Positions 31,261 through 49,965 are shown, counted from the stretch's first letter. The stretch is 58,402 nt of DNA from a virus (IMGVR_UViG_3300035701_000037:1-58402), one strand, 5' to 3'. Notes: generated from the letters alone by a model not told the origin. Numbers and translations are program-made.

Positions 31261-31337
31261 ACAACTGAATACTCGCCGGCGTTGCGATGACGAGGCGAGC
31301 CGCTTCAAGCCCACAGAGGGCCGGCGGCTCGCCTTTT
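31261..31337 (+). ncRNA. cis-regulatory leader 1 (ACAACUGAAUA plus alternative antiterminator/terminator)
   Basis: ggcgag (31294-31299) pairs either with ctcgcc (31272-31277) or within terminator aggcgagccgc/gcggctcgcct-TTT. Confidence 0.65.
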
Positions 31338-31370
31338 GTATTGACTGCAGGATCGAAGAAGGAGCCGACT

Positions 31371-32900
31371 ATGGCGATCGATTTCAGGACGTATCCGCCG
31401 GCCGGCCACACAGACAGAGTGGCCGCCTACGGCAAGTTCGAAAAACTCTTCATCGGGGACCACAAGACAGTCTTCAATGTGCAAGTCGGCCCCTATCAGG
31501 CACTGCGCTACATCGTGGCCAATTTCCCGCAAACACTCTCGCGACTTTGCGCCGACATGCTCTTCGGCGAGCAGCCGGACTTCATGGCCGGCCAGCAGGA
31601 GGGACCCGAGCGCGAAAAGGCGCAGGCGGCGCTGGACAGCATGACCCAACTCAACAGCCTCCACGTGGTCAATTACGAATCGGCTCTCTCGAATTCTTTC
31701 CGGGGGGATGCTATCTACAAGGTCTGGTGGGGCGCCCCGGCCGGCGACTTCGGCGTGGAGAGCAAACCGCGCGCAGTCATCCAGGAAGTCCCCGCCGCGA
31801 TCTACTTCCCGGAGGTGGCCGAGGACGACGTGCGGGAGATCCGTCGGGTCACGCTCGCGTGGACAAAGCGCGATCCCAAGATCCCCACCATGCAATACCT
31901 GCGCGTCGAGGAACACGAGCCAGGCACGATAAAGCATCGCTTACTGCTGCTGACTGGCCAATCGCCCGGGCAGGAAGTGCCCCTCAACACGCTCGAGGAA
32001 TACAAGAACCTCCCGACAGAGGAAGAGACCGGCCTGCCGGTTATCCCGGTCGTGCATATCCCGAACTTCCGCTATGGCTCGCGCTTCTGGGGCATCAGCG
32101 ACTACCAGGGTCTCGACGCCCTCTTCGAGGCAATGAACAACCGCCTGTCGCAGATCGAGATCGTACTGGACAAACACGTGGCCCCGAAGATCATCTTGCC
32201 TCCCGGGTTCATCGACGATCAAGGCAAAGTGCGGTTCGACTCGATGGAGGCGGTGGAAATGACGGCGGGAGATATGCCGCCGAGTTACCTCACGTGGGAG
32301 GGACAGCTTACGGCCGCCGGCGCGCAGTACGATCGCCTGCTCGACCTGCTGATGATCACGGCCGAGATCGCGCCATCGTTGTTCGGTCTGGAGAAGTTCG
32401 GGCTGGCGGAGAGTGGCCGTGCATTGCGGCTGCGGTTGCTGCGGACCCTGGCGAAGATCAATCGGAAGCGCCTCTACTACGACCGCGGGCTGGCAGAGGT
32501 ACTGCTGATTGCACAGATGCTGGACGCAGCCAAAGGCGCGGGGGGTTATACGCCGGTGAAACCCAATATCCAGTGGGCGGACGGTCTCCCGGAAGATATC
32601 GTCGAGATGGTGCAGACGGAGGCCCAGCGATTGGCGGCGGGCAATAGCTCGATCGAATCCTCGATTCGGCGTTTGGACGGGCCGGATGCGGTGGAGGCGG
32701 AGATGGATCGGATCGCCGAGGAAGCGGGCCTATTTGGGGCCCTGATGGGCGCGACCGGCGGCCGTGGCGGGAAGGTCGAGCCCCCAGCCGTCCCCGGAGG
32801 CACGAGCGGCCAAGGCGGGCAACAGGGTGGGACGACCGAAACCCCAGGCCAGACCACCGGGGCAGCGGCCGGGGCACAACCAACCGGAGCCACCCAATGA
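31371..32900 (+). CDS. portal protein (SPP1/A118-like)
   Basis: Follows terL; LCADMLFGE, FWGISDY, ESGRALRLRL, IQWADGLP. Confidence 0.88.
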   Translation: MAIDFRTYPPAGHTDRVAAYGKFEKLFIGDHKTVFNVQVGPYQALRYIVANFPQTLSRLCADMLFGEQPDFMAGQQEGPEREKAQAALDSMTQLNSLHVVNYESALSNSFRGDAIYKVWWGAPAGDFGVESKPRAVIQEVPAAIYFPEVAEDDVREIRRVTLAWTKRDPKIPTMQYLRVEEHEPGTIKHRLLLLTGQSPGQEVPLNTLEEYKNLPTEEETGLPVIPVVHIPNFRYGSRFWGISDYQGLDALFEAMNNRLSQIEIVLDKHVAPKIILPPGFIDDQGKVRFDSMEAVEMTAGDMPPSYLTWEGQLTAAGAQYDRLLDLLMITAEIAPSLFGLEKFGLAESGRALRLRLLRTLAKINRKRLYYDRGLAEVLLIAQMLDAAKGAGGYTPVKPNIQWADGLPEDIVEMVQTEAQRLAAGNSSIESSIRRLDGPDAVEAEMDRIAEEAGLFGALMGATGGRGGKVEPPAVPGGTSGQGGQQGGTTETPGQTTGAAAGAQPTGATQ

Positions 32901-33196
32901 GTCCACCAATTGATCGCGAGTGCCGCAGGCTTGCGTCTGCGGTTATCTGGAGAGCATTCCTAGATGCCACGAGCCCGGAACAGGCGCACCAGTGTGAAAC
33001 TCACGCGATTGCTGGGAGACAGAACCACGAAGAGGCCCGCCGTTTCTTCGACCGTGGCTCGCCTGGCCTGGACTTCTGGTGCGATATGGCAGGGATGGAT
33101 GCGGAGACAGTCTCCGTCCGGGCCGTGGTATTGATCGCTCGCGCGGATGCTACCAGGCGCGCGCCGATCGCCGCGCAAGGCGGCATGGCCCCGTGA
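32897..33196 (+). CDS. hypothetical phage protein
   Basis: RRLASAVIWRAFLDA...FWCDMAGMD. Confidence 0.55.
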   Translation: MSPPIDRECRRLASAVIWRAFLDATSPEQAHQCETHAIAGRQNHEEARRFFDRGSPGLDFWCDMAGMDAETVSVRAVVLIARADATRRAPIAAQGGMAP

Positions 33197-33480
33197 CCAG
33201 GATCTTCCACAGCCGCGTTTACGGAGCGATCAACAAGCGGCGCCGCCGGGCATTGGGGCTGGTCGGGTTCAAACGCGAGCACGTCTGGAATCTCATGGCC
33301 CTCGAGGAGGTACACTTGCGGGCGCGGGCCGCGGCTGCGGCCTACCGGATGCTCCCCTGCTGGCGGCGGGCCCTGATACGGATCAGTCGGTTGTGGCCCA
33401 TGCTGGTGCGTTTTCTGCTGAGCCGGCGGCCCGTGTGGAAGTTGTTCGGGCGAAGGCCACGAGGAAACCAGCGAGGTTGA
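33193..33480 (+). CDS. hypothetical basic protein
   Basis: GTGA overlap; fills the gap before the minor capsid gene. Confidence 0.4.
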   Translation: MTRIFHSRVYGAINKRRRRALGLVGFKREHVWNLMALEEVHLRARAAAAAYRMLPCWRRALIRISRLWPMLVRFLLSRRPVWKLFGRRPRGNQRG

Positions 33481-33489
33481 GAGGCCTCG

Positions 33490-35655
33490 ATGCCCAAACT
33501 GATATCGGCCAGTCGCGCTCAAGAATTCAGACGGGCCTTCGATGGGCAGATCGGCGACCTGGCGGCGCTCTACCGCAATGCGGCTGCCGATGCACTCGAC
33601 GTGCTCACCAGGGCTGCCTCGACAGTTGCCTCGCGCCAGCGGGCTCTCGCACTCTTGCGGCAGTACGAGACCATGCTCGCGGAAATGAACGATGAGGCCG
33701 CGCTCTGGATTCACCTCAACGTCCCGGAAGCCTATGACGCGGGGGTCACCATTGCCGAGGAGGGGATCGGCAATATCCAGCGCGCCGGAATCAATCTGCG
33801 TCCCGGGCGCCGGCGGGCAGTGGCGCTCCGGGAGCGGGACGTCTTCTCGCGAGTCCACCAGGAGGCGGCCCAAGCGATTGCCGCGGCGATGGTTGACCGC
33901 ATGAGTGCGGCGGTGCTGGAGATCGGCCGGCGCGTGGACGATGTCTTCCGGCAAGAGGGGATGGTGGCGGTGGCGCGGGGGATCGCGGCCGGCAGGGCAC
34001 GGGTCGAGGTTAGCCGCGAGATTAAGGATCGGCTGATCCAGGCCGGGCAACCAGTCTTCCGGGATCGGCTCGGCCGCATCTGGACCCTCGACCGATACTC
34101 GGAGATGGTCGCTCGCACAACTACGCGTGAAGCGATGACCCAGGGGACGATCAATCGGCTGCGCCAGGAGGATATCCTGCTGGCGCGAGTCTCCTCTCAT
34201 CCGTGCGAAGATTTCTGTTGTGCGCCGGGTACGCGAGTGCTAACATCCGCGGGCTGGCATCGCATCGAGACTATTCAGGAGGGCGACCTGGTGATGACGC
34301 ACCAGGGCCGATGGCGCGCCGTGACAACCGTCATGCGGCGGCACTATAAGGGGCCCCTCATTGAGATCGGCGGGCTACGGGTCACGCCAGACCATCGGGT
34401 TTTGACCCGACGGGGATGGATGAAAGCGGGCGCACTACTGGGCCGGGACCAGATCGTGCTCCTTAAGGCCGTTGAGGACCGCGGTCGGCAATGTGCGGGG
34501 GTCTTTGCCCGATGCAATGCGGAGGACCTGATAGCCCAAGGCGCGGAGGTTGGCATCCCGAACACCATCTCTCTCAGCGCGCCGCTTGGCCTTGTGCCAG
34601 CCGCCGCCGTCGATCTCAACGATCAAATTAGCCCCGGGGAAGAAGAAATCAGCCACATACGCCTCGATGGGTTGTTGGAAGATATAGGGGATGCTGCGAC
34701 GGTCGAGTTCGGTTATCACCGCACGCTCGATCGCGGATGGATTTCGGCGGTAGGCCGCCGCGTTGCTCGTGGCCCTTCTGCTTCGGGTGACCGGATTCCG
34801 CGCGAGATTTCTCGCGCGCAATCGTCTGCCTGCCTCGGCATGCCATCGGCTACGATCCGGATGGTTGGGATCAGTGAAGCCCTTGGGGGCAAGGCCTCCG
34901 GTTGGCTTGGCCTTGATGCCATAGCGCGGCAGCCATCTCCGGGACAAGTGGGCATTGTAGGAGCGGCTGCGGCCCAATTCCTGCGCGATGTCAGCAAGAT
35001 TGGCTCCTTCTGCGACGCGGCGGCGGAGAAACTGCTCCAGTGGCTCTCCGAGGCGATCGCTGAACTTCTTTTCGGTCCCGCGCATCCGCAGCTCGCCGAA
35101 GCACTTGGAGGAACATGTCTGGGAGCGACCGCAGGCTTTGATAAGGGAGGGAAAAGAATCGGCAGCCTGGCCGCACACCGGGCAGATGGTCTTCATGCGC
35201 GGAGTATAGACGGTTCTGGCAGTTCGCGCAATAACTACCGCGGCCCCGTCTGGAATCTATCCGTGGCAGGCGATGAGAGCTACGTGGCGGAGGGGATTGT
35301 AGTCCACAACTGCATCTACTTCGAGGGCATGATTGTAAACATCGGCTCGAAGCCTCACCCGGTCTATCCAGACATCTCCGCGATCGGCGGCGGCCCGCCG
35401 TTCCACCCCCAGTGCACTCACGTGTTGGAGCCCTTCGTCGAACGACTGGCATCGCGCGAGGAGCGACAGCAGGGCAAGGCCGCACCGAAGGTGCTGATAC
35501 CGGCAGGCAGGTCGAGAGAGCAGCAATTCGGCCTTCTTCAGCGCCGGTTCACGAAGCAGTTCCCCGATCGAGCGCGAGAGGAAGGCAAGCGATTGCGCAC
35601 CGAGGGTGCGCGGGCTCAGGCGCGGCAAGAGCGGGCGGCGGCGCGGGCGCGGTAA
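33490..35655 (+). CDS. minor capsid/head morphogenesis protein interrupted by an intein (356 aa after splicing)
   Basis: DRLGRIWTLDRYSEMVARTT, VSSH.C...C..FEG, PPFHPQCTH. Confidence 0.88.
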   Translation: MPKLISASRAQEFRRAFDGQIGDLAALYRNAAADALDVLTRAASTVASRQRALALLRQYETMLAEMNDEAALWIHLNVPEAYDAGVTIAEEGIGNIQRAGINLRPGRRRAVALRERDVFSRVHQEAAQAIAAAMVDRMSAAVLEIGRRVDDVFRQEGMVAVARGIAAGRARVEVSREIKDRLIQAGQPVFRDRLGRIWTLDRYSEMVARTTTREAMTQGTINRLRQEDILLARVSSHPCEDFCCAPGTRVLTSAGWHRIETIQEGDLVMTHQGRWRAVTTVMRRHYKGPLIEIGGLRVTPDHRVLTRRGWMKAGALLGRDQIVLLKAVEDRGRQCAGVFARCNAEDLIAQGAEVGIPNTISLSAPLGLVPAAAVDLNDQISPGEEEISHIRLDGLLEDIGDAATVEFGYHRTLDRGWISAVGRRVARGPSASGDRIPREISRAQSSACLGMPSATIRMVGISEALGGKASGWLGLDAIARQPSPGQVGIVGAAAAQFLRDVSKIGSFCDAAAEKLLQWLSEAIAELLFGPAHPQLAEALGGTCLGATAGFDKGGKRIGSLAAHRADGLHARSIDGSGSSRNNYRGPVWNLSVAGDESYVAEGIVVHNCIYFEGMIVNIGSKPHPVYPDISAIGGGPPFHPQCTHVLEPFVERLASREERQQGKAAPKVLIPAGRSREQQFGLLQRRFTKQFPDRAREEGKRLRTEGARAQARQERAAARAR
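34435..35196 (-). CDS. DUF559/Vsr-like endonuclease with N-terminal Zn-finger and HTH, nested antisense in the intein
   Basis: CPVC..CSSKC; LADIAQELGRS; PSAIE..FQQPI..YVADF..LIVEIDG..WH..RD..RD..LRALGYQVLRI. Confidence 0.88.
   Translation of the reverse strand: MKTICPVCGQAADSFPSLIKACGRSQTCSSKCFGELRMRGTEKKFSDRLGEPLEQFLRRRVAEGANLADIAQELGRSRSYNAHLSRRWLPRYGIKAKPTGGLAPKGFTDPNHPDRSRWHAEAGRRLRARNLARNPVTRSRRATSNAAAYRRNPSAIERAVITELDRRSIPYIFQQPIEAYVADFFFPGANLIVEIDGGGWHKAKRRAERDGVRDANLRALGYQVLRIASGKDPRTLPTAVLNGLKEHDLVPAQ
35203..35231 (-). promoter_or_regulatory. sigma70-type promoter, leaderless, for the antisense endonuclease
   Basis: Minus strand reads TTGCGC-17 bp-TATACT-6 nt-ATG(35196). Confidence 0.7.
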
Positions 35656-35675
35656 CAAAAATCCGCCTGGGGGGA

Positions 35676-35703
35676 TTGACGGGCGCTGAAATTGGGATAC
35701 AAT
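35676..35703 (+). promoter_or_regulatory. sigma70-type promoter for the head-module leader
   Basis: TTGACG-16 bp-TACAAT. Confidence 0.7.
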
Positions 35704-35733
35704 AGGTAGGTAAGCCTGGACGGGGCCATCGTG

Positions 35734-35841
35734 ACAACTGAATAAGCCGCCTGCCGGCGTTGTGATGACGAGGCAGGCATCTCGCGACTCTTGCAATCAT
35801 CGAGGGTCATGGGATGCCTGCCTCTTTCTTTTTGGCAGGCG
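35734..35841 (+). ncRNA. cis-regulatory leader 2 (ACAACUGAAUA plus antiterminator/terminator)
   Basis: gcctgcc/ggcaggc versus terminator gaggcaggcatctc/gggatgcctgcctc-TTTCTTTTT; 21/22-nt core shared with leader 1. Confidence 0.7.
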
Positions 35842-35881
35842 CAGGAGCGGGCGGCAATCACGAAGCCAACCGAGATCGACG

Positions 35882-36064
35882 ATGCCGGTTCACGAAGTCT
35901 CTGGCGGGTGGCAATGGGGCAAGCATGGCAAGGTCTACCCCACTAAAGCCCAAGCCGAGGAGCAAGGCCGAGCGGCCTTTGCTTCGGGATATCGAGGGCA
36001 ACGTGCAGGGCGTGTGCGAAAGGCCACGCGCCGGTTCAAAGCCGGCCGGCGCCCGGGGAGATAA
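35882..36064 (+). CDS. small phage protein
   Basis: MPVHEVSGGWQWGKHGKVYPTKAQAEEQGRA. Confidence 0.6.
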   Translation: MPVHEVSGGWQWGKHGKVYPTKAQAEEQGRAAFASGYRGQRAGRVRKATRRFKAGRRPGR

Positions 36065-36070
36065 GGGCTA

Positions 36071-36433
36071 ATGGCAGACATCAAGATTGACAATCAGACC
36101 TTTGTGAGTGGCGGATACGGGCCCGGAGAGAGAGCCGACTTGGGGGAGAAGCTGGCCGAGGCAGGGGACGCGGCGGCGATTCGCGAGGCCTTCCTCTACG
36201 TGCCGGACCTCGAGAACCGCAGCGAATGGGGCGGACCTCATCACGAGCTGAGGGGCGATACGCTGGTTGTAAACCGGACGGCAGTTCATGCGAGGCTGGG
36301 CGAATTGCACGGGGCCCGGCATGCCGGCGGTCCGGACTGGCCGCGCGCAGCGAAGATCGCCGCCCTTGCCCATCTACGCAAGCATTATACAGCCATGGAT
36401 GAGGAGATCCCCCCAAAGCCATCGGGCGACTGA
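36071..36433 (+). CDS. head-region protein, paralog of 36444-36806
   Basis: EAF..V...PHHE...D.LVVNR.AV...ALAHLRKHY. Confidence 0.65.
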   Translation: MADIKIDNQTFVSGGYGPGERADLGEKLAEAGDAAAIREAFLYVPDLENRSEWGGPHHELRGDTLVVNRTAVHARLGELHGARHAGGPDWPRAAKIAALAHLRKHYTAMDEEIPPKPSGD

Positions 36434-36443
36434 GGGGCACCAC

Positions 36444-36806
36444 ATGCGCATCAACAACAGCCGGATTTCGGATTTGCCGTGGAACGACGAGGCCATCTTC
36501 GGAGCGGAGCAAGCCCTGGCCGATGCACCCGCCAAGATCCTCGCCGAGGCCTATTGCCACGTGGGCAAGGATGGGCAGCGACTTGGTCTGCACCATGAGG
36601 TCGTGGACGATGAACTGCTTCTGAACCGGCAGGCCATCTATGCAGCGATGAGTCTGTTCCAGGGGCAGCAGGTGCCCACGGTCGGAGGTCTCTCTAGCCA
36701 GGGAGAGGCGACGAGTCCGCAACCGATGCTTGGCATTGCGCGGGCGGACCGCATCAAAGCCCTCGAGCACCTGAGCGAGCATCTAGAGGATTTGCAACAG
36801 AGTTAG
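36444..36806 (+). CDS. head-region protein, paralog of 36071-36433
   Basis: EAY..V...LHHE..DDELLLNRQAI...ALEHLSEH. Confidence 0.6.
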   Translation: MRINNSRISDLPWNDEAIFGAEQALADAPAKILAEAYCHVGKDGQRLGLHHEVVDDELLLNRQAIYAAMSLFQGQQVPTVGGLSSQGEATSPQPMLGIARADRIKALEHLSEHLEDLQQS

Positions 36807-36906
36807 GGATTCGCCCCGGGCAACCGGGGTTACCAGACGCATCCGGCGAGCGGTGAATCACCGGGAGACGCCGACGGGCGGTCAACCACGGGAGGAGACC
36901 AGGATC

Positions 36907-37620
36907 ATGGCTAAGACACCAGAGGAAATCGAAGCGGAACGCAAGGCGCAGGAAGCTGCAGACGAAGCCAAGCGAAAAGCCGATGAAGAAGAGGCGAAAC
37001 GCAAGGCCGATGCTGCGGCCGCAGCCAGCGTTGCAGACAAGGGCGGCTTCAAGGTCACCCTAACTGACGTCCAGCGCAAAGCCCTGCTCGAGGGCAAGCC
37101 GCTCGAGTTGTCGGATGAGCAGTATACCGGCGGCGTCCGAGACCAGGTGGAGAAGGAGAGGCGGTCACGCAGGGCGGCTGAAAAACAGCTGGCCGATATC
37201 GCCAAGCAGCGGGAAGAGGAAGAGAAAAAGGCTCTCGTCGAGCAGGAGAAGTACAAGGAGCTCTACGAGAAGGAAGCGGCGGGCCACAAGACCACTCAGG
37301 ACGCTCGAAATGCCGACGCGATCCGGAGCGCTTTTCTGGTGGCTGCTGTGAGGGCCGGCGTCGTGGACGTGGACCTCGCATTCCTCGCTGCCAAGGCATC
37401 TCCCCTGTTCGCGAAGATCAGCCTCGATGACAATGGCGCCGTCACCGGCGTCAATGAAGTGCTTGAAGACCTCGTCAAGCAGAAGCCTTTCCTGGTTTCC
37501 CAGCAGCGGCAAACGGTAGGCGGGCCGAGCAATCCCAACACAGGGGAATTGCCGGCCCCGAAGACGCTCGCCGAGGCCGGGGACCAACTTGAGTCGAGAA
37601 TGAAGACCGGGCAGGTCTGA
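36907..37620 (+). CDS. capsid scaffolding protein
   Basis: Charged coiled coil, EQEKYKELYE, LVKQKPFL; precedes the capsid gene; RBS ggagg. Confidence 0.8.
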   Translation: MAKTPEEIEAERKAQEAADEAKRKADEEEAKRKADAAAAASVADKGGFKVTLTDVQRKALLEGKPLELSDEQYTGGVRDQVEKERRSRRAAEKQLADIAKQREEEEKKALVEQEKYKELYEKEAAGHKTTQDARNADAIRSAFLVAAVRAGVVDVDLAFLAAKASPLFAKISLDDNGAVTGVNEVLEDLVKQKPFLVSQQRQTVGGPSNPNTGELPAPKTLAEAGDQLESRMKTGQV

Positions 37621-37663
37621 CCGGCCGAGTCCAAGCGGCGAGCCAAATTGAAGGAGGATCGAA

Positions 37664-38647
37664 ATGGCGGCGACGCTTATCACGCTGGCGGAGCTCATCG
37701 TAAAGCTCTATGCCGGCCCGTGGGTCGACGCGCTACAGAAGGAGACCTTCCTGCTCGTCCGCCTGGGTGAGCGGGGCAATGTGAAGACCGGCCGAGGCAA
37801 TGGGATCCGTTGGCCCGTTCGATATGCGGGGAACTCGGCAGTGGGATCGTATGGCGAGGGCGACGCGGCCGGCGGCGCTGGCAACCAGTCCGCCAAGGAG
37901 GCATTCCTTGGCTGGAAGTTCCAGAAGGCCGAGATCTCCATCGGCGGGCCTTCCTTGGCAGTCGGCGCGCAGGGCGGGATGGTAGTTGATCCGCTCCGCT
38001 TTGAGTTGGACAACGGCCTGCTGGACATGCGGGCTGCGATCAATACGCAGATCATGGGTGATGGGACGGGCAACAGCGGCAAGGATTTGACCGGCCTGCT
38101 GGCAGCCCTGGCCGACACCGGGACCTACGCGGGACTTGACCGCGGCAGTTACACCTGGTGGAAGGCATATGTCAATGCGAACGGCGGCACGCCGCGCAAC
38201 CTGACTGAAGCGCTGATGCGCGACGTGAAAAAGACAATGGAGAGCAGAGGCGGCACGCTCACGGCGATCTATGCCGGGGCAAACCAGTGGTACGCCTACG
38301 GCGACCTCTTGCGGGCCGAACGGCGGCAACAGGATCCGCAGACCCTGACCGGCGGCTACCAGGCCCTTGACTTCGAGGGGACCCCGCTCATCAAGGTACC
38401 GGGGTACGTCCAGACGAGGATGGAGTTCGTTGACGAGCGGCTGATCGAGTACCACATGCTCCCGGTCACCAGCGAGAACACGGCGATAGCCGGGCTGCGC
38501 ACAGTGGCCGCGGTCCCGGGCATGCCGGGGTTCGGCATCCTGGTGCTTGGCGCAACCAAGGATGCAGCCGACTTCCAGGTGATCCACTACAGCCAACTCG
38601 TGGTGCGCAATCCCTACCGGATGGGCGTGCTGAAGGACCTGGCCTAA
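37664..38647 (+). CDS. major capsid protein
   Basis: Position after scaffold, 327 aa; GDGTGNSGKDLTGL, TYAGLDR, LTGGYQALDFEGTP, QLVVRNP. Confidence 0.85.
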   Translation: MAATLITLAELIVKLYAGPWVDALQKETFLLVRLGERGNVKTGRGNGIRWPVRYAGNSAVGSYGEGDAAGGAGNQSAKEAFLGWKFQKAEISIGGPSLAVGAQGGMVVDPLRFELDNGLLDMRAAINTQIMGDGTGNSGKDLTGLLAALADTGTYAGLDRGSYTWWKAYVNANGGTPRNLTEALMRDVKKTMESRGGTLTAIYAGANQWYAYGDLLRAERRQQDPQTLTGGYQALDFEGTPLIKVPGYVQTRMEFVDERLIEYHMLPVTSENTAIAGLRTVAAVPGMPGFGILVLGATKDAADFQVIHYSQLVVRNPYRMGVLKDLA

Positions 38648-38672
38648 CCGGGACAAGGAGGAAAAGAGCGAT

Positions 38673-39959
38673 ATGGCAATCACTGACGCTCAAATCGAGC
38701 TTCTCAAGAAGATCTGCCCAGGCCTGAGAGAGATTGATGCCGGCGCGCTGATACGAGCGGCGGAGTCCGGCGGAGTCAGCGAGGGCGCGGGCATCGATAT
38801 CACGGCCGGGGTCATCTCAGCCGACGTGGACGACACCACCGTCTCGGTGGGCGGCTCCGGCATTCAGGTGAAGGCGAAGGGCGTTGACACGGCCCAGTTG
38901 GCCGACGACGCCGTCGAAACGGGGCAGGTCGCTGATTTGGCGATTACCCTGGGGAAGTTGGCCGCTGCGGTCCAGAGCGCGATCGTGTCGAACGCGGTCG
39001 CAGCGCTGGCGGCAGCCCAGAAGATCATCCGCGGCCAGATCACGCTTGCCGGCGCGAACCCGACGACGGTCCAGATCGCCAGCTCTCCCAACAATGCGAC
39101 CTTGCTGGGGACCACCGGGCCGAGCTATCTCCTGACGGTGAACAACACCTTCATCGTCAACCCCAATGCGGTCGGCAACCAGACGTGGACCGTGGCGGGG
39201 ACGGCGGGCACATCGACGGGCACAACGGGCTGCTCGGAGGACATGTCGGCGGCTGCTGACAACAAACTGAAAGTCGCAGTTGATGGCGGCGCGGCTCAGG
39301 TCGCCACTTTCGACTGGACGGCCGGCGGCGGGTGCAACACCGGGGCCAAGATCGCGGCCCAGATGCAGACGGTCATCCGTGCCCTCGGTGGGGACTATGC
39401 GGCGGTCACGGTCGCCTTCTCGACCGACCACTACGTGGTGACCTCGGGCAACAAAGGGACGGCGAGCGTGGTGGTGATCACCGCGGCCGCCGACCACAAC
39501 TGCACCGAGGAACTGAAGCTCGGCGTTGCAGATGGCGGGAGTGAAGCCGCCGGCACCGGGGACGTACCGATCCTGGCGCGGGCAACCGCGGCGCAATGCG
39601 CGGCGAAGATCGCGGCGCTGCACGCCTCGCTGGCCAACACGGCGGCCGAAGGCAATCACATCCGCCTCAACGCCACGGGCTCCGGTGGGTCGAGCAGCCT
39701 GGTGGTCGGGAATGGGACGGAGAACACCGTCCTGGGCTTCACGAACACCCAGGCCGACTACGGAGACGTCGGGTTGGCAGCTGGTCATGCAATGGCGGAT
39801 GCCAACTACACCGTGGTCGTCACTCCACTCACCAACGATCCGGCTGCTGTGGACGTCATCAGCGTCTACAACAAGGCGGCCGGGTCCTTTGACATCTACG
39901 CCGAGACGGCGGTGGCCATTCCGGTCGAGATCATCGTTATCGGCGCGATCGCGAGTTAG
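38673..39959 (+). CDS. structural protein (head decoration or fibre-like)
   Basis: Ala/Gly/Thr-rich beta repeats; follows the capsid gene. Confidence 0.65.
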   Translation: MAITDAQIELLKKICPGLREIDAGALIRAAESGGVSEGAGIDITAGVISADVDDTTVSVGGSGIQVKAKGVDTAQLADDAVETGQVADLAITLGKLAAAVQSAIVSNAVAALAAAQKIIRGQITLAGANPTTVQIASSPNNATLLGTTGPSYLLTVNNTFIVNPNAVGNQTWTVAGTAGTSTGTTGCSEDMSAAADNKLKVAVDGGAAQVATFDWTAGGGCNTGAKIAAQMQTVIRALGGDYAAVTVAFSTDHYVVTSGNKGTASVVVITAAADHNCTEELKLGVADGGSEAAGTGDVPILARATAAQCAAKIAALHASLANTAAEGNHIRLNATGSGGSSSLVVGNGTENTVLGFTNTQADYGDVGLAAGHAMADANYTVVVTPLTNDPAAVDVISVYNKAAGSFDIYAETAVAIPVEIIVIGAIAS

Positions 39960-42445: not shown

Positions 42446-42466
42446 GTCCACAGAGGAGGAATAGGA

Positions 42467-43288
42467 ATGCCAGCAACAATCACGACCGTCAAGCCCGGAG
42501 CGGCGAAAGCGGGGACCAGCCTCACGATCATCGGGACCGGCTTCGCGGACACTCCGAGCGAGACGAAGGTCTATCACCGGAAGCACGGCGCCGCCTCATG
42601 GGAGGCAGTTGACCCGGCGAATGTAGTCTACGTGTCGGCGACGGAACTGACCATCAGCATTGATGATCCCGACACGGACGGGTGGGACAAGGGGCTCAAC
42701 GACGTGGGGGTCTCGACCAGCGCCGGCAGTACTCCCGACGACGAGCTGACCCAGGCCCTGTACTTCTACGGCGCTGGCGCGTTTGCGCCGGATGACGTGA
42801 TCAAGGGAGCGCTCGAGGAGTTCTACATCGAGGGCCTATTCATGGGCCACACGCACGGCGCCTTCGACGCTGACTTCGCAGTCGAGACCTCGGACATCGA
42901 GGTGGAGCAGTCGCTGCTCCCGGTCCGGACGATCAAGTCGGGCGAGAAGTACACGATCAAGGTCCCGTTGGCCGAGGTCAGTCTCGAACATATCAAAGAG
43001 GTCTGGGGCATCTCGGCGACTATCGAAGATCTCGGCAGCGGCAGGCGGCGGCTGACCTTCGGTGGCGACACCCTAATCGCCGAGAAATCGGTCATGGTCG
43101 TTCTCCCAGGCAGGTCAGGCCGGAAGTACTACTGGTTCTTCTATCGCTGCGCGGTCCGCGGATCGGGCACGTTATCCTGGAGCAAGGGCGACCAGGTGGA
43201 TCTGCCCATCGAGCTGACCGTCTTGGCCGACACCAGCAGGCCGGCCGGCGATCAGGTTGGGTTCATGGAAGAGGTCACCGTTACCTAG
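42467..43288 (+). CDS. major tail (tube) protein with N-terminal IPT/TIG domain
   Basis: ITTVKPGAAKAGTSLTIIGTGF; MGHTHG..D.EVEQ..P; PIELTVLAD. Confidence 0.8.
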   Translation: MPATITTVKPGAAKAGTSLTIIGTGFADTPSETKVYHRKHGAASWEAVDPANVVYVSATELTISIDDPDTDGWDKGLNDVGVSTSAGSTPDDELTQALYFYGAGAFAPDDVIKGALEEFYIEGLFMGHTHGAFDADFAVETSDIEVEQSLLPVRTIKSGEKYTIKVPLAEVSLEHIKEVWGISATIEDLGSGRRRLTFGGDTLIAEKSVMVVLPGRSGRKYYWFFYRCAVRGSGTLSWSKGDQVDLPIELTVLADTSRPAGDQVGFMEEVTVT

Positions 43289-43423
43289 GACGGCGACCGA
43301 AAAACGGATAACACACGCGCGGCAATGATGCCGGGCAATGTCGGAGGCGGGTCGCCCCACCTCCCCGGTAGCAGCAGCCGGCCACAGGGCGGCCCGACTC
43401 CGGCCAGTGGAGAGGAGATCAGG

Positions 43424-43873
43424 ATGTCGGAGCAGACGACCGATGCCAGCCCAAAGGTGGCGGAAACCCCGCCGCCGTCACCCTCCGTCATCGAGGTGAT
43501 ATTCCCGCCCGACCGCCAATACAAGATCGGCGACCGGGTAATAACCGTCAAGCCCTCGGTAGGCGGGAAACTCAAGCGGGTCGAGGGCGAGCTCAGGGAA
43601 ATCGGCAAGCACATCGCTGAGAATCATCCAGATTTCGATCTGGAGAAACCAGGTGTGCATCTCGCGCTCGTGGTTCCCTCAATGGTCGGGACCGTATGGC
43701 ACCTCCTGGCGGAGCTTTTCGATATCGAGGAATCCTACCTCGATGACCACCTCACGATCTTGGAGGCGGTCGAGATCATGTCCGCCTGGATCGAAGTGAA
43801 CCGGCTGCCGGACGTACTAAAAAAAGCACTCAGCGCCCGGATGATGCTGGCGGGCATACCGAGTCTCAACTAG
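43424..43873 (+). CDS. tail assembly chaperone (G)
   Basis: Between tube and tape measure genes; slippery site near its 3' end. Confidence 0.75.
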   Translation: MSEQTTDASPKVAETPPPSPSVIEVIFPPDRQYKIGDRVITVKPSVGGKLKRVEGELREIGKHIAENHPDFDLEKPGVHLALVVPSMVGTVWHLLAELFDIEESYLDDHLTILEAVEIMSAWIEVNRLPDVLKKALSARMMLAGIPSLN

Positions 43874-44181
43874 GGATCGCGGGCGCCTACGACTTGCTGG
43901 TGGAGGCGGGATGGGCAATAGAATCGCCGGACGCCTTGACGTGGGGATGGACGCCGGCGCAAATGCTGCTGATGATCCGGGCCGCGGAGCAGCGGCGCGC
44001 CGCGCGGCTGGTCGAACAGGCGCATATCGACTATGCGATCGCCGCGGCGGCACAGGGCGGAAAGAAAGCCTTCGGGGCATTTCGTTCGATGCTGCGAGAT
44101 CTGATGGAACGCGCGGGCCATGTTGAGCAGACCGATGCGGAGGAACTGGCGCGCCGCATGGGGCTCAGGCGAGTCGGGTAG
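43819..44181 (+). other. programmed -1 frameshift (A AAA AAA, 43819-43825) into the GT chaperone extension
   Basis: The -1 frame is open from the heptamer into ORF 43894-44181; lambda G/GT-type arrangement. Confidence 0.75.
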
Positions 44182-44193
44182 GAGCGTGAAGAA

Positions 44194-47100
44194 GTGACTG
44201 TCGGCGAAGTGAAAGCGATCCTCTCAGCGGACCTGACGAAGTTCCGGGCGGGGCTCCTGCAGGCCAACTCGCTGCTCGACCAGGCCGGGGCATCGGCCAT
44301 GAAGGCGAGCGCGATGCTGGCCGGGTTCGGAGCGGCTGTGGCCGGCGGGATGGGCATGGCGGTCAGAGAGAGTATCGAGATACAAGCAGCGCTGGCGGAT
44401 CTCAACAAGGTCCTGAAGCTGAGCGATGACGCCCTCGAGGAACTAGCCAAGCGGTTAGATGTCCTGGGGATGGCCACAGGGATCGCGGATGAAGCCCTCG
44501 CTGAAGCCCTCGCCAACATCGGCAAGGCGGGACTGGCGGGAGCAGAGGGCATGCAGGTCCTGGAGGCCGCCACAAGGGCGGCCGTCGCAGGGCGGGCAGA
44601 CATCAAGTTAGCAGGCGATGCCCTGGTCTCGATCATCCGCGCTTACAACCTCCATGGTTCGGAGGCGGCAAAGGTCACTGATGCCCTTTACCAGGCCAGT
44701 ATCAAAGGCCGCATGAGTCTGGAAGCCGTCTCAGAGGCAGTCAAGGGAATGGCGCCGATCGCTTCTCAGCTGGGGGTCAGCTACGTGGACCTTGCGGCTG
44801 CGCTGGCGACGACTACGACCGTCGGTTACGATGCTGAGAACAGCATCATGGGCCTTTCGCGGGCGATGATCAACCTGACGAACCCTGGCAAGCAACTCCA
44901 GGCCGCGTTGAAGGCGGCGGGGTATGAAACGGGCCAGGCCCTGATCCAGGCGAAGGGCTTTACCGGCGCGATCCAGTTCCTGACCGAAGCAGCGGGCGAT
45001 GACGAGCAGGCGATGATCCAGATGGCCGGAGGGGCGCGGGCCTACAAGGCCGTCGTAGCCCTGGCGGCGGATGGGGGCAGGCTTTTCGCCCAGAAACTCG
45101 CTGAGATCGCGGACTCGGCGGGAGCCGTAGATACGGCATTCGGCATGATGGAAAAAACCTTCAGCTTTCAGTGGTCCCGCTTCGTCCGGGCAATGAAAGA
45201 GGCCGGCGAGGCAGTCGGCAATGTGTTGCTGCCGGGCCTGACACTTCTGGCCCGGATCCTGGCCGCTCTCGTAGGAACGGTCCAGTTGATGCCGGGGCCA
45301 TTGAGAACGGTGGTGGTAGGGGCGGTCTCTTTGGCCGCAGCCATCGCCGCCCTCGCAGGATCGTTCATCCTCTTCAAGTTGCACCTGGCGGAGACGATCG
45401 TGCTCACGGGCAGACTGGTCATATCCCTGGCGAGTGCGGTTGTCGCTGCGATCGCCGGTTCGGCCACCTTGCAAGCGGCGCTGGCTGGCTTGCGCGCGGC
45501 ATTGATCGCGACGCGCGTAGCAATCGAATTCTTCTTCATCTCGACTGGTCCGATCGGATGGACTCTCGCTCTTCTGGCGGCGGTCGGGGCCGTGGTGGCC
45601 GCCCTGGTCCTCTGGTACAAGCACCAGGCGAACCTGAACAGACAGGCCGAGGAAACCCATCGGCTTACCCAGCAGCAGGCCGAGGATCTGGCAAACCTGC
45701 TCGATCACCTGCAGAAACTTCAGGTGGCACGGCTGAAGGAACAGGCCGCGGGGAAACCGGCGAACCTCGCTGCACTGAAAGATGAGGCCGACACCCAGGA
45801 TAAGATCGCCGATCTTTACCCGAAACTGATCGACTATGTGGACAAGTATGGCCATGCCCACCTCATCGCCGCCAAGAGTCTGGAGACCTTGACCGAAGTC
45901 CAGAAGAAGAACCGCCAGGCGGCAATAGCAAGCGCCGCCGCCCAAGTTGCGGAGGCGGCGCAGAGGCGGTCCGACCTGGCCGACCAACTGGCAGCGGCAA
46001 TAAAGATGAGGGAAAGATTCGAGGCGCTCCCGCCCAGCAAGCAAGCCTTCATACTCTCCGAAGTACCCGGAATGCGCGGCAAATCTGCGGCGCAGGTCAT
46101 TGAGGAGATGCAGAGCAAGGAGAAGGACCTCCGCGCCCAGGTCCGGGCGGCCAATGCTGAGTACGAAGAGCGTCAGAAGGTGCTCCACCAGGTTGGCATG
46201 ACGCAGGAGCGGATCGCCAGGGAGCAGGCAGCGGCGGATGCAAAAGGCCGCGCAGAGGCGCATCGCGGCCTTGTCCAACGTCTGGCCGCCATTGACCAGG
46301 AGGCCGCAGCGCTGAGGCGGCTGGGGGTGACGGCGGATGATATCAACCGATGGGTTGCCGTTCGGCGTCTCGAGGCTTACAAGAAATCCAGCGATGAGAT
46401 CCTGAAACTGCAGGCCCAGGTCCTCGAGGCCGAGGGCAAGAAGCACGCGGCGCGACTGGTCCAGATAGAGATCGAGTCCAACGAGCTACTCGAGAAGGCG
46501 AAGACCGCCAAGGTGCCCGAGCCCGAACGCAAGGGACTGGTCCGGCGCTTCATCGCCGGCGAGTTGAAGACGGCCGCCAAGGAAGCGGCCGATGCTGCCC
46601 GCGAGAAGACCAAGGCCGCACTTGAGGCCGAAGGCCAGCTGGCCGAAGTTCTCAAGCAGTATGAGAACGACGTCGCCGGCGTGCGCGCTTATGTCCACAA
46701 TGTTCGCATGCGGCAGATCCGCGCCGAGGCGGACGAGATAAAGCGGCAGATGGTCGAAGCGCAGATGCCGGCCGCCCGGGCGGAGATCGCTGCGCGGGAA
46801 TATGTTACCGCAAAATCCATCGAGCTCGCGAAGGAAGAAGCGGACGCGAGGGCGGCGATATTCGAGAAGTCGGCGCCCCTGATCGTGAGCAGGTGGCAGG
46901 CTGCTGCCTCGGCCATGTACGAGGCTGGCACCATGAAGGCCAGCGAGTACCTGGCCAGCCTCGCCCGGCAACTTGATCTAATCCATCAAATCAACCTGGC
47001 CCAAGCCGCTGCGGGGAGGCCGGCGCTCCTGAGGGACGAGGAGATGCGGCTCGCCCAGACGATCTTCTCCGAGCGCAAGCGCATGTTGTCGGAACTCGAG

Positions 47101-47820
47101 AGCGCCGAGAAGCGCCTGGCCGATGAACGCAAGCGGTGGAGCCAGGAAGAGCTCGAGCAGCGCCGCCGGGTGCACGAGGCCGAACTCTCAATGATATCCC
47201 TGAGCTTCGAGCACCAGCGGGATCTGTTGAAGGCTCGGGGCATTGAGGACCAGGCCGCTACGGCGCGGATCGCCAGCGATGAGCTGGCCGCCCTGCAACT
47301 GCGCCGGCAGACGGAGATGCTGACCGGGCAGGAGCGGCTCGAATCGCTCCAGCGGGAGCGCGACCTGGTGATGCAGATGGCCGAGGCGCAGATGGCGCCC
47401 GCAGGCGGCGCCCGTGGCGCGCTCGAGGCGATCTACACGGAGATGGTGTCGGCCCGGCAGCAGATGGCCCTGGAGGACAAGCGGGCATTCGAGGAGCGCA
47501 GGCGCGAGGCCAACGAGGCGGTCACCAAGATCGAGACCGAGCAGACCACACTGCGCAGCCAGATCGCGCTGACAGCGACCAACATCGCAGACGCAGCCAG
47601 GCGCGTGTTCGAAGGCATCCGGAATCAACTCGAGATGCTCGGCACCGTGAGGATCGTCCCCACCGTGCAGATGGCCGCCGTCGGCGGCCGCGCGGTTCCC
47701 ACGCGGGTGAACAACTTCTACATCAGTGGCCAGCGAGTGGGGGCCGGCGTTGACATAGATAAGATCGCCGATCAACTGGCCGCCATGCTCGAGCGGGAGC
47801 ACCAATTTGCGAGGGACTGA
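44194..47820 (+). CDS. tape measure protein (TP901-type core)
   Basis: 1208 aa, helical and Ala-rich; central hydrophobic segments; position. Confidence 0.92.
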   Translation: MTVGEVKAILSADLTKFRAGLLQANSLLDQAGASAMKASAMLAGFGAAVAGGMGMAVRESIEIQAALADLNKVLKLSDDALEELAKRLDVLGMATGIADEALAEALANIGKAGLAGAEGMQVLEAATRAAVAGRADIKLAGDALVSIIRAYNLHGSEAAKVTDALYQASIKGRMSLEAVSEAVKGMAPIASQLGVSYVDLAAALATTTTVGYDAENSIMGLSRAMINLTNPGKQLQAALKAAGYETGQALIQAKGFTGAIQFLTEAAGDDEQAMIQMAGGARAYKAVVALAADGGRLFAQKLAEIADSAGAVDTAFGMMEKTFSFQWSRFVRAMKEAGEAVGNVLLPGLTLLARILAALVGTVQLMPGPLRTVVVGAVSLAAAIAALAGSFILFKLHLAETIVLTGRLVISLASAVVAAIAGSATLQAALAGLRAALIATRVAIEFFFISTGPIGWTLALLAAVGAVVAALVLWYKHQANLNRQAEETHRLTQQQAEDLANLLDHLQKLQVARLKEQAAGKPANLAALKDEADTQDKIADLYPKLIDYVDKYGHAHLIAAKSLETLTEVQKKNRQAAIASAAAQVAEAAQRRSDLADQLAAAIKMRERFEALPPSKQAFILSEVPGMRGKSAAQVIEEMQSKEKDLRAQVRAANAEYEERQKVLHQVGMTQERIAREQAAADAKGRAEAHRGLVQRLAAIDQEAAALRRLGVTADDINRWVAVRRLEAYKKSSDEILKLQAQVLEAEGKKHAARLVQIEIESNELLEKAKTAKVPEPERKGLVRRFIAGELKTAAKEAADAAREKTKAALEAEGQLAEVLKQYENDVAGVRAYVHNVRMRQIRAEADEIKRQMVEAQMPAARAEIAAREYVTAKSIELAKEEADARAAIFEKSAPLIVSRWQAAASAMYEAGTMKASEYLASLARQLDLIHQINLAQAAAGRPALLRDEEMRLAQTIFSERKRMLSELESAEKRLADERKRWSQEELEQRRRVHEAELSMISLSFEHQRDLLKARGIEDQAATARIASDELAALQLRRQTEMLTGQERLESLQRERDLVMQMAEAQMAPAGGARGALEAIYTEMVSARQQMALEDKRAFEERRREANEAVTKIETEQTTLRSQIALTATNIADAARRVFEGIRNQLEMLGTVRIVPTVQMAAVGGRAVPTRVNNFYISGQRVGAGVDIDKIADQLAAMLEREHQFARD

Positions 47821-47821
47821 T

Positions 47822-48676
47822 CTACGGCTTAGCCTGGGCTTTGAACTCAGCAGCGAGGGCAGCATTGGCGAGGCCGATGTAACCTTCGAGGAGATACATC
47901 GGCTCCTGCGAGGCGAGCAGTGCCTCCCATTGCTCCCCGAGGTTCCCATGGACTTGGGCGCGATGAAGCAACCGGGCATGGACGGTGCTGAGGTCCATTG
48001 CCCTGGCTATGCAGTTGCGGCTTGGCGGTTTCCAGTCGAACCCCTGGTAGCGCAGAAAACCATCGACGAACCTTCGGGTGGCAAGCAATCCCGAGAGGAA
48101 ATGATAGTTGTCACCACTGGCCAGCCTGTAGAGATCACCGAGGACATCGAGTGCGGCACGGGCGTGAAGAATGTATGCCTGCTGTGCATAGATCTCAGCG
48201 CCAGTTTTGGGCCGCGGGAACCGGGTCATTACCTTGAATGGGAATCCCGCCTGGCGCAGGAGATCCTTGGCCCTTTCGATGGAATGCCCGCATTTCGCGA
48301 CCTCGACAGCGGGATCAAGGGGCTCAGACAAAGCCTCCTTGTCGCAGATTTGAGCCGTGGCGCCGATGGCTTCCTCGGCGGCCAATGCAGCATCTGCCAG
48401 CAACTTGTAGCGGGGAGCCTTGGTGCGGTCGTAATCTGCGTTCGCCTGCTGCGCGACAGCGGCCGCACTGCTGGCAAGCGACCGCAGGATAATCGAATTC
48501 GCGGGATCGATTCGCAGACAGACCCAATAGTCATCGAGGGTCTGCCGCAGTCCTGCAGCGATCCGCCTCGCCTCGGGGCCGGGGACGCCATATGGTTTCG
48601 GGACCGCTGCGCCGGCTGCAAACGTGAGGCCGAGAATGGACCATACCCCAAGGCAGAGTCTAGGGAACCTGTGCAT
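47822..48676 (-). CDS. secreted hypothetical protein (moron)
   Basis: RBS ggagggagg; signal peptide MHRFPRLCLGVWSILGLTFAAGA; inverted in the tail operon. Confidence 0.65.
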   Translation of the reverse strand: MHRFPRLCLGVWSILGLTFAAGAAVPKPYGVPGPEARRIAAGLRQTLDDYWVCLRIDPANSIILRSLASSAAAVAQQANADYDRTKAPRYKLLADAALAAEEAIGATAQICDKEALSEPLDPAVEVAKCGHSIERAKDLLRQAGFPFKVMTRFPRPKTGAEIYAQQAYILHARAALDVLGDLYRLASGDNYHFLSGLLATRRFVDGFLRYQGFDWKPPSRNCIARAMDLSTVHARLLHRAQVHGNLGEQWEALLASQEPMYLLEGYIGLANAALAAEFKAQAKP

Positions 48677-48770
48677 CGGGATCCTCCCTCCTGTAGCGCC
48701 CCTGGCAGCAATATTCATGCCAGGCCGGGCTTCCAGAGCATTTATGCCATGAATTGAGGCGTGAACGTAG

Positions 48771-49148
48771 ATGGCCAGCACCTGCTATTTGAGCCTGCCG
48801 GACGACAGCGCGAAGATCTACCTCGACGAGGACCCCGAGACCTACGACGACGGGCCGGCCGAGCGCCGGATGTCCTCGCAGGAGACCATGGGCGGCGGGC
48901 GGGTCTGGCAGGATTTCGGCGTCCAGGACCTTGACCGCACGATCCGCCTAAAGACGGGTTGGATGACGCAGGCAACCCTTGATGCGTTCAAGACGAAACT
49001 GGCTGTACTCGCGCAGGTCTGGAAGTGGGCCGATCACAAGGGACGGTCCTACCTCGTCGTCTTCCGGACCATCAACCCCGAGCGGATCCGCGGATACGAG
49101 GCCTACCGGGTCGAGATCAATTTTGACGTGCTGCAGGCGCTCTCATGA
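48771..49148 (+). CDS. distal-tail-like protein
   Basis: First + strand gene after tape measure; TMGGGRVWQDFG. Confidence 0.6.
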   Translation: MASTCYLSLPDDSAKIYLDEDPETYDDGPAERRMSSQETMGGGRVWQDFGVQDLDRTIRLKTGWMTQATLDAFKTKLAVLAQVWKWADHKGRSYLVVFRTINPERIRGYEAYRVEINFDVLQALS

Positions 49149-49594
49149 AAACCCAGAGGCTGCTAACCGACGGCCAGAATGGCCGGGAATGGAGGCGACT
49201 CTTCGCCCTGTGGGCCAGGCGCGCGCTGCTGCGCGCGGGCTGGAGGATCTCGATCGTGGGGGACCCGCACCTGGATGCGATGGCAGAGTACAGCACGGTC
49301 GTGCCCCGGCGCGAGGTGGTCTTCAAATTCAGGACGGACGTAAAGGCAGACTCGCTGACGGCGGCTCACGAGATCGGCCATGTAATGGTGGCGCCGATCC
49401 AACACTCGGCAGACCATGTTATCGAGGACCTCCCCGAGGCGCAGAAGTCCCTGGCCCGCAAATGCATCAGGGACGCGATCGAGGAGGCGGCCGAGAACAT
49501 CGCCCTGGCACTGGCAGAGGCTTATCGGGAGCTGGATGCGGACAGGCGGGGAGGCAAACGGAATGGCAAAAGGCCGAAGGCAGCCAGGCGCTAG
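49145..49594 (+). CDS. HExxH zincin-like protein
   Basis: TAAHEIGH with downstream EE. Confidence 0.55.
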   Translation: MKTQRLLTDGQNGREWRRLFALWARRALLRAGWRISIVGDPHLDAMAEYSTVVPRREVVFKFRTDVKADSLTAAHEIGHVMVAPIQHSADHVIEDLPEAQKSLARKCIRDAIEEAAENIALALAEAYRELDADRRGGKRNGKRPKAARR

Positions 49595-49860
49595 AGAGGG
49601 CCGGACTGGGCGCACGTGGGCAGGCGTGCAGCGGACGGCTCCCTGGGCGACCTATGTTCGGCCGGGGCTGGAACGTCGCAACACGGGGCATCCTGGTGCA
49701 AAGTTTTCGGGCGGGTCCGCGCATTGTCCGCGCATTGGGGCGCAAACCGGCGATTTCGGGGATTCCGGGCCAGGCCGGCCGAGAAGATCGCAGTGGCGCT
49801 CGTCGAGGCTTACAAGCAGGCGCAGGCATGATGAACCGCGCGCGGCCGATACGCGCGCTC

Positions 49861-49965
49861 ACAACTGAATAGACCGCCCAAGAGACCGGGGTGGCCACCC
49901 CGGGGCCAGAGGGCCGAGCCCGACAGACTCACGTGAGGGGTCTGCCGGGCTTTTCTTTTGGGCGG
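49861..49965 (+). ncRNA. cis-regulatory leader 3 (ACAACUGAAUA plus terminator)
   Basis: agcccgacagac/gtctgccgggct-TTTCTTTT; outer stem ccgcccaagaga/tcttttgggcgg. Confidence 0.55.

Follow-up and report, generated by a model that had tools for sequence, protein, structure and literature searches.

Several regulatory systems rely on a short hairpin that overlaps the 5' arm of an intrinsic terminator and is stabilised to permit read-through, among them BglG/SacY/LicT-RAT, HutP and ANTAR. ANTAR targets carry two tandem small hexaloop hairpins, the second overlapping the terminator, and in hut the regulator gene lies directly upstream of the terminator that is controlled. The HK022 put RNA, a promoter-proximal cis-acting phage element that bears on terminator read-through, consists of two stem-loops that need no protein to act on RNA polymerase and lie clear of any terminator. 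Lambda N/nut combines a conserved linear element with a small phage-specific stem-loop, one site behind each promoter, and lambda PR'-tR' with Q places a constitutive-type promoter, a short leader and a terminator before the late genes. In published accounts, a lambda-type late promoter yields a short RNA by-product stopping at the terminator (PMC7547250), and a long one-directional mobile-element operon of the pLS20 family is controlled by terminators and leader RNA structures, comprising conAn and a zipper-type attenuator whose antiterminator fold opposes an intrinsic terminator (PMC13401043, PMC8191782). Here we describe RNA cassettes in the late operon of the virus IMGVR_UViG_3300035701_000037, a complete IMG/VR record (CheckV 100% complete) whose whole length of 58,402 bases is the window analysed. 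Two leaders, cassette 1 before the portal gene (W1) and cassette 2 before the head genes (W2), appear to be factor-dependent antiterminator/terminator switches, promoter-proximal attenuators that would gate the portal and head blocks; we give this reading a probability of about one half.

The kind of mechanism is known; what is new is the family itself, which recurs at the boundaries of virion modules and has an inner hairpin specific to each genome. In contrast to the RAT and ANTAR target shapes, the element here is a single nested two-part hairpin with a loop of mostly 5 nt, and unlike the BglG, HutP and ANTAR systems it has a conserved 5' decamer, occurs in two or three cassettes per genome and stands before virion modules. 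No CAT_RBD/PRD, HutP or ANTAR domain was found in the phage among the open reading frames (ORFs) scanned, 41 against Pfam and 48 against PHROG; all Pfam and PHROG results below refer to these ORFs. The pLS20 leaders run to hundreds of nucleotides and form one long imperfect stem, whereas the elements here are ~90 nt long and repeated, with an inner hairpin peculiar to each genome. We found no relation to the pLS20 leaders in sequence or in Rfam.

The 11-mer ACAACTGAATA has three exact copies in the window, all on the + strand, against 0.15 expected (Table 1). None of 100 shuffles contained three or more, and no further site with up to one mismatch was present on either strand. Each copy is followed by a GC-rich stem leading directly into a U-tract, as in an intrinsic terminator, and by inspection these are the only canonical + strand terminators of the genome. 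All three lie at module boundaries, between terminase and portal, between the minor head protein and the head genes, and inside the distal tail genes. In cassette 1 the first 8 nt of the motif are doubled (CAACTGAA twice in tandem at 31254-31269); relatives have a single motif copy, 4-7 nt past the -10 hexamer. Other AACTGAAT-like sites (17169, 22200, 26210 and 26732) were discarded, as they lie inside coding sequence and have no terminator.

Cassettes 1 and 2 also share the core GCCGGCGTTG(C/T)GATGACGAGGC, found at 31275 and 35753 only, even with up to three mismatches allowed (0.01 expected). In folds of truncated RNAs, both leaders form a hairpin whose outer stem encloses an inner CGUU-loop-GACG hairpin. 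The outer arms of W1 (31272-31277 and 31294-31299, CUCGCC/GGCGAG) are joined through a GG bulge and an A bulge to the inner hairpin at 31280-31292, and those of W2 (35749-35755 and 35772-35778, GCCUGCC/GGCAGGC) enclose an inner hairpin at 35758-35770. In both leaders the 3' arm of the hairpin, GGCGAG in W1 and GGCAGGC in W2, is at the same time the 5' arm of the terminator. The full leaders fold as the terminator (W1 -36.3 kcal/mol, z -2.9; W2 -59.2 kcal/mol, z -5.0), and the hairpin stays the lowest-energy structure until the 3' end of the RNA is 6-8 nt from the U-tract, that is, until the last 6-8 nt of the terminator 3' arm. When the hairpin is forced, the residual terminator stem stops 7-9 nt short of the U-tract, and because the stem of an intrinsic terminator must abut its U-tract, this gap should in these models disable termination. 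GGCAGGC recurs at 35834-35840, just past the W2 U-tract, and the middle arm recurs likewise in the copy-2-type cassettes of L084, L068 and L041, so that the 5' arm of the hairpin has a second possible partner past the terminator, with which it can enclose the entire element; the closing helix of cassette 3 is analogous.

A first-pass annotation, made from the sequence alone, had described the three 11-mer copies with a terminator after each, the promoters and common core of the first two, their position before late-gene modules and their mutually exclusive folds with compensatory stems. The copy number and the folds bear out the first of these claims, and the promoter scan and the uniqueness of the core the second; the portal and head genes do follow copies 1 and 2, and the competing stems covary in dozens of related phages, as described below.

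The inner loops of W1 and W2 each contain an ATG (31287 and 35765) in frame with the downstream gene through the terminator, giving ORFs at 31287-32900 and 35762-36064. We rejected a leader peptide, as neither ATG is preceded by a ribosome-binding site and L066 has its counterpart in another frame; the shared frame is probably a coincidence.

The same architecture, built from different stem sequences, is found in portal relatives among viral contigs (18 loci). In nine hand-checked copies, 94.9% of hairpin cells are paired and both sides have changed in 7 of the 11 pairs. Their covariation score was reached by none of 500 shuffles, and partners slid out of register pair in 32-56% of cells. The first-pass annotation had proposed a covariance model as a check, and the model that we built from the motif and the hairpin (R1, matches counted at E ≤ 0.1) matched 64 times, in 51 of the 80 metagenome loci with a related portal. 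Every match lies on the strand of the portal gene and in one of two places, ~100 nt ahead of the portal ATG or 3-5.5 kb downstream of that ATG. Loci with a portal no more than 45% identical gave no match (0/23), and the other six matchless loci are short fragments. Across 52 distinct R1 rows, in an alignment that leans toward structure because it was fitted to the model, 92.3% of cells are paired and 8 of the 11 pairs show changes in both partners. A scan of genome contigs added only two short ones, from a Candidatus Hebobacteria and a Bacillota metagenome-assembled genome, and both have the element before the portal gene.

Deduplication of 74 listed copies on their first 100 nt left 63 distinct copies, of which 58 could be scored for both folds by script. 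In every one of these at least 4 nt of the outer 3' arm of the hairpin form the terminator 5' arm (the whole arm in 49). The hairpin has a median energy of -14.7 kcal/mol and the terminator one of -37.8 kcal/mol. The U-tract starts at a median of 87.5 nt past the motif. Judged from these alignments, the elements have the structure of an attenuator: an upstream helix shares a strand with the terminator stem, and both pairings are conserved. Only the 5' decamer and the terminator base are conserved in sequence, and the hairpin interior differs among phages. After realignment of the 63 copies the conserved part of the motif is AACYGAATAG (A 55, A 46, C 48, Y 59, G 52, A 55, A 51, T 56, A 58 and, at the last position, G 35 or C 16). 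No match to the window was found in Rfam release 15 at the gathering score, nor to the elements of six related loci; the first-pass annotation had named a match to a characterised Rfam family as the result that would remove novelty. Permissive searching returned chance-level hits only: microRNA models over the W2 terminator (E 1.1 and 9.9) and the DUF1874 RNA (E 7.4, 14.3 bits against a cut-off of 42).

The promoters of cassettes 1 and 2 are the best two of four promoter-like sites in 30001-50000, and in the same scan no such site precedes copy 3. A promoter, defined by at least 4/6 matches to TTGACA and a TAnnnT second hexamer, is present in 54 of the 63 copies. Between the -10 hexamer and the A that opens the decamer, a gap of 6 nt is the most frequent (16 copies), ahead of 3 (9), 8 (6) and 9 nt (5). 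The commonest gap would place this A at +1, and in most copies the decamer is thus the predicted 5' end of the RNA. The spacing spans -4 to 53 nt across copies; in nine, W2 among them, 27-53 nt that include a hairpin separate the -10 hexamer from the motif. Given this variation and the promoterless motif of cassette 3, the motif is not bound to a fixed promoter position.

Two features of the flanking DNA may be mentioned here. The -35 hexamer of cassette 1, TTGACA, reads as Leu-Thr codons of the conserved PPLTG tail (31214-31252) of the small ORF that ends there, and this tail is common to the small ORFs of many relatives; promoter and coding sequence hence constrain each other. In L006 (6190-6260, identical to L070) a sequence that to the eye resembles the 3' end of a tRNA gene (GGTTCGAATCC) directly precedes the copy-2 promoter.

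The inner stem-loop differs among phages and matches between the two copies of one phage. It is CGUUG(C/U)GAUGACG in both copies of the window, CCGGAAAACCGG / CCAGAAAACUGG in the closest relative, G001, CUCGACAUCCGAG in both copies of L047 and L065, and AUCGCAACGAU in both copies of L052. Over 11 phages the mean within-phage edit distance of the inner hairpin is 2.27, compared to 5.48 with copy 2 shuffled among phages, and 0 of 10,000 shuffles were as low, in a test that ignores relatedness and in which three large within-phage values are partly extraction errors. The outer arms showed no such concordance (3.45 compared to 3.21 shuffled). The window and G001 are 73% identical in the portal and 87% in the major head protein, and at copy 2 their promoter, motif and terminator align almost base for base; however, ~23 nt comprising the 5' arm and the inner hairpin are replaced. 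Such a swap among close relatives is unexpected for a polymerase-binding RNA, and so argues against a put-like element, and is equally unexpected for a ligand pocket, whereas it is expected if the hairpin is read by a cognate phage factor. On these comparisons the trigger is more likely to be a phage-specific trans-acting factor than a ligand.

The best candidate for this factor is the 73-residue product of P0001, a small ORF located between terminase and cassette 1. Its place just ahead of the terminator that it would control is that of the regulator gene in hut. P0001 is conserved in relatives; its profile finds 75 library representatives at E ≤ 0.001, nearly all of 47-98 residues, and picks out the family in 32 of 98 loci but in none of those of the element-lacking clade. 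An AlphaFold2 model consists of a helix and a beta-hairpin (pLDDT 79.5). Membership of DUF2292 (PF10055) was rejected, because P0001 gives no match even at E ≤ 10 (gathering cut-off 22 bits). Sub-threshold DUF2292 scores of 12.9-15.4 bits in 3 of 25 distant relatives, and a nearest named protein-atlas cluster with DUF2292 on 30% of its members (score 0.81), provide a lead only, and we found nothing on the function of DUF2292 or YezD in the literature.

The subfamily of the protein in this slot tracks the hairpin type. CUCGACAUCCGAG is paired with a 75-residue protein (MPRCDVHANW...GHGEMTLTF) in five distinct loci, and this protein has marginal similarity to P0001 (hhalign probability 32%). CCGGAWAACCGG is paired with an unrelated protein of 86-93 residues, without detectable similarity, in all five loci of its type (L004, L054, L059, L060 and L064); in L060 and L064 some 2.9 kb separate its gene from the cassette. 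A model of the type-D protein was too poor (pLDDT 56) for a structural search. In the L005/G002 provirus the small ORF follows terminase and the portal lies ~4.6 kb further on, past a tape-measure-like gene inserted there; the portal has no cassette in front of it, and copy 2 is the only one present. A further ORF of the window, at 23491-23808, is an alternative candidate regulator: its 105-residue product has a basic, zinc-ribbon-like C-terminal tail, gives weak treble-clef and NinG-like matches, and has no homologue in G001.

Taken as factor-dependent switches, cassettes 1 and 2 would operate as follows. A near-consensus sigma70-type promoter would give an RNA with the single-stranded decamer AACYGAAUAG at or near its 5' end, followed by the two-part hairpin (an outer stem of 5-7 bp, a 2-nt/1-nt internal loop, an inner 4-bp stem and a ~5-nt loop) and then by the terminator. 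By default the far more stable terminator would win, leaving a short RNA of ~75-95 nt and the structural genes off. Read-through would occur when a trans-acting, phage-specific factor recognises the inner stem-loop, and probably the decamer too, and locks the hairpin, so that the residual terminator stem ends short of the U-tract by the 7-9 nt noted above. P0001 would be translated from the transcript that lies upstream, ahead of the structural genes, and a phage-made factor probably decides when the latter switch on. What we observe is the anatomy, its covariation, the arm common to hairpin and terminator, and the agreement of a genome's two copies with each other; from these we infer the transcription start, the default state, the direction of regulation and the existence and identity of the factor. 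More tentatively, and with rather less confidence, we propose a modular antitermination code in a clade of uncultivated temperate siphoviruses, in which interchangeable slot proteins, some of them unrelated, would each lock their own inner stem-loop in all late leaders, while the decamer would recruit a shared, perhaps host, factor.

Several observations weigh against the factor-dependent reading. The concordance of the inner hairpins was judged without regard to relatedness, and in L060 and L064 the loop is common to both copies and the stem is not. The association between small proteins and hairpins is a correlation, partly explained by physical linkage and shared ancestry. P0001 itself has no Pfam match, no PDB match by Foldseek at E ≤ 0.001 (best E ≥ 3.7; best Z in VIA 3.5) and, on reading its sequence, is not notably basic; neither the Pfam nor the PHROG scan found a known antiterminator or RNA-binding family. 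By script, 5 of the 63 copies have a weak or absent U-tract. In L118 (4009-4300) two tandem cassettes have unlike inner hairpins, the first with a degraded terminator, in what looks like a recombination scar. No RNA run containing the sequence 30900-36900 was found, only one DNA run that may be its source, so termination, read-through and transcription start are all predicted. Finally, cassette 3 keeps the decamer without a competing hairpin, which the model does not explain.

Cassette 3 has only the 11-mer and the terminator in common with copies 1 and 2, and other hairpins take the place of the two-part hairpin. Hairpin A (49886-49903) and hairpin B (49904-49915) precede the terminator (49916-49952) and the T-tract (49951-49959), and a closing helix pairs CCGCCCAAGAGA (49874-49885) with TCTTTTGGGCGG (49954-49965), in the U-tract region. 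The copy in G001 is 84% identical, flanks included, and has a compensatory G>A / C>U change in hairpin A; there it follows the homologue of the tail-module gene ORF-A, whereas in the window it precedes ORF-A. In G002 both sides of ORF-A lack such a cassette, and scans of viral contigs with two cassette-3 patterns found the G001 copy only. Its shifting place and its absence from G002 identify cassette 3 as an optional insertion of variable position, and it is a separate internal terminator cassette with the same decamer. The first-pass annotation was right that copy 3 is the more divergent, but the three are not leaders of a single kind: its structural inference is borne out for copies 1 and 2, whereas copy 3 has neither promoter nor competing hairpin.

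The decamer retained in cassette 3 is the main reason to keep in play a nut-like loading site for processive antitermination, which we consider unlikely but the strongest of the alternatives. The decamer would correspond to boxA, bound by a host factor, and the inner hairpin to boxB, bound by an N-like protein, and the modified polymerase would read through the adjacent and later terminators, including that of cassette 3. The layout agrees, with a linear conserved element followed by a phage-specific stem-loop of 4 bp and a pentaloop, one site per promoter, an unprotected terminator (cassette 3) further down the operon and a decamer kept even where there is no promoter. However, the hairpin here is nested in an outer stem that competes with the adjacent terminator, an overlap seen in 58/58 copies that would be superfluous in a pure loading site. 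Moreover, the decamer is unlike the boxA consensus and no boxA-like sequence was found, nor did a scan of small basic ORFs find an arginine-rich N-like protein, a class for which there is no reliable profile.

Next, and also of low probability, is an attenuator that needs no factor, in which co-transcriptional partition between the folds would cause a fixed partial termination, keeping upstream and downstream products in a set ratio and the modules insulated. The conserved alternative folds are what such a device would need, and the hairpin would have the advantage until the end of the terminator 3' arm is made. The zipper-type attenuator of pLS20 offers a factor-less precedent in a long mobile-element operon (PMC13401043). 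Yet an attenuator of this kind leaves unexplained why the inner hairpin is the same within a phage and different among close relatives, and why the decamer is conserved.

It is improbable that the terminated transcripts are small regulatory RNAs in their own right, with the decamer as seed and the terminator as a stabilising 3' module. The cassettes have the build of a 5'-seed small RNA, with a promoter of constitutive type, a 5' end that is conserved and single-stranded, and a strong terminator. The switch that we favour likewise predicts a short terminated RNA in its off state, resembling that of lambda PR'-tR' (PMC7547250); the two functions could coexist. But covariation between the 5' and middle arms is not required of a small RNA, and complementary sites to the decamer are not enriched in the phage (48 matches compared to 36 expected at up to two mismatches, none on the + strand better than one mismatch).

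A DNA-level system like Q/qut, with the decamer as the site at which a Q-like protein joins a polymerase paused near the promoter, is more doubtful still. The order of promoter, short leader, terminator and late genes follows the logic of lambda PR'-tR', and in most copies the decamer lies at about +1 to +10. Its distance from the -10 hexamer varies too widely for this, though, cassette 3 has no promoter at all, and by inspection the decamer has no TAnnnT-like hexamer to hold sigma. In contrast to lambda, the gate comes after terminase, two gates bear promoters and one further cassette is internal, and the RNA structure covaries, which a DNA site does not explain; no Q homologue was found by Pfam or PHROG. 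The RNA switch for late genes proposed by the first-pass annotation stands as regards exclusive folds and position, but a small-molecule riboswitch is the least credible form of it, since for all the mutual exclusion of its folds the element is very small, lacks an Rfam match and has as its only candidate pocket an inner hairpin and 2x1 internal loop that vary in sequence among phages.

The genome around the cassettes has a G+C content of 64%, with nearly all plausible genes on the + strand. PHROG and Pfam scans place it among the temperate siphoviruses, with an integrase, replication and methylase genes, and connector genes. Two ParB-N-like ORFs lie in 26461-29013, one of which is a fusion with an N6/N4 DNA methylase (27571-29013) and immediately precedes the putative small terminase gene. 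The portal gene starts at ATG 31371 behind the ribosome-binding site GAAGGAG. The 60-residue ORF that is the first gene after cassette 2 has no Pfam match; in relatives it is also the first after copy 2, with the same ATGCC(G/T) start. No named phage matched the window by megablast, and tblastn matches of the portal, to Paenibacillus, Streptomyces, Gordonia and other phages, were all below 60% identity.

Table 1. Positions of the cassettes and of the genes around them, counted from the first base of the window.
Feature	Position	Strand	Evidence or remark
Integrase gene	6805-8328		PHROG/Pfam scans
D12-class adenine methylase gene	22416-23498		
Putative small terminase subunit gene, 206 aa	28964-29584		read from position and weak helix-turn-helix (sigma region 4) matches only
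Terminase large subunit gene, upstream of cassette 1	29418..31037	+	phrog_2 E 2.2e-21, phrog_24361 E 4.1e-22
Small ORF P0001, 73 aa, candidate trans factor	31031..31252	+	3' end holds the cassette 1 promoter
Cassette 1 sigma70-type promoter, TTGACA-17-TACACT	31220..31248	+	10/12 consensus matches
Cassette 1 5' motif	31253..31271	+	exact 11-mer at 31261-31271, partial tandem copy before it
W1 predicted antiterminator hairpin	31272..31299	+	truncated-RNA fold, -14.1 kcal/mol; covariation
W1 intrinsic terminator	31294..31342	+	stem GGCGAGCCGC...GCGGCTCGCC, then TTTTGTATT; hairpin -31.1 kcal/mol
Portal gene, first after cassette 1	31371..32900	+	phrog_533 E 2.4e-43; tblastn to annotated phage portal proteins
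Minor head protein gene, last before cassette 2	33490..35655	+	phrog_4611 E 1.5e-30
Cassette 2 sigma70-type promoter, TTGACG-16-TACAAT	35676..35703	+	30-nt leader precedes the motif
Cassette 2 5' motif	35734..35744	+	exact 11-mer
W2 predicted antiterminator hairpin	35749..35778	+	truncated-RNA fold, -18.5 kcal/mol; covariation
W2 intrinsic terminator	35770..35834	+	stem 35770-35824, then TTTCTTTTTG; -39.7 kcal/mol
Small ORF, 60 aa (MPVHEV...GGWQWGKHGKVYPT), first gene after cassette 2	35882..36064	+	conserved
Scaffold gene	36853		follows the 60-aa ORF
Major head protein gene	37664		follows scaffold
Tape measure gene	44194-47820		distal tail genes after it
GC hairpin directly before the cassette 3 motif	49837..49858	+	stem conserved, loop changed in the G001 copy
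Cassette 3 5' motif	49861..49871	+	exact 11-mer, no promoter upstream
Cassette 3 body	49874..49965	+	fold -52.4 kcal/mol, z -4.0
Tail-module ORF-A, first gene after cassette 3	49992..50701	+	

The elements combine a clear anatomy and strong covariation with a testable hypothesis about their partner. If small proteins do read the inner hairpins, the hairpin-protein pairs would be naturally orthogonal terminator switches; if true, this would also provide a first function for a DUF2292-like protein family, itself without a known role, and a new family of timers for phage late genes. If there is no factor, the cassettes would join the pLS20 leaders as a second case in which self-contained attenuators give structure to long mobile-element operons. 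Either way, a terminator within a phage 'late operon' can be the sign of a regulatory boundary, and terminase can be timed separately from the virion genes.

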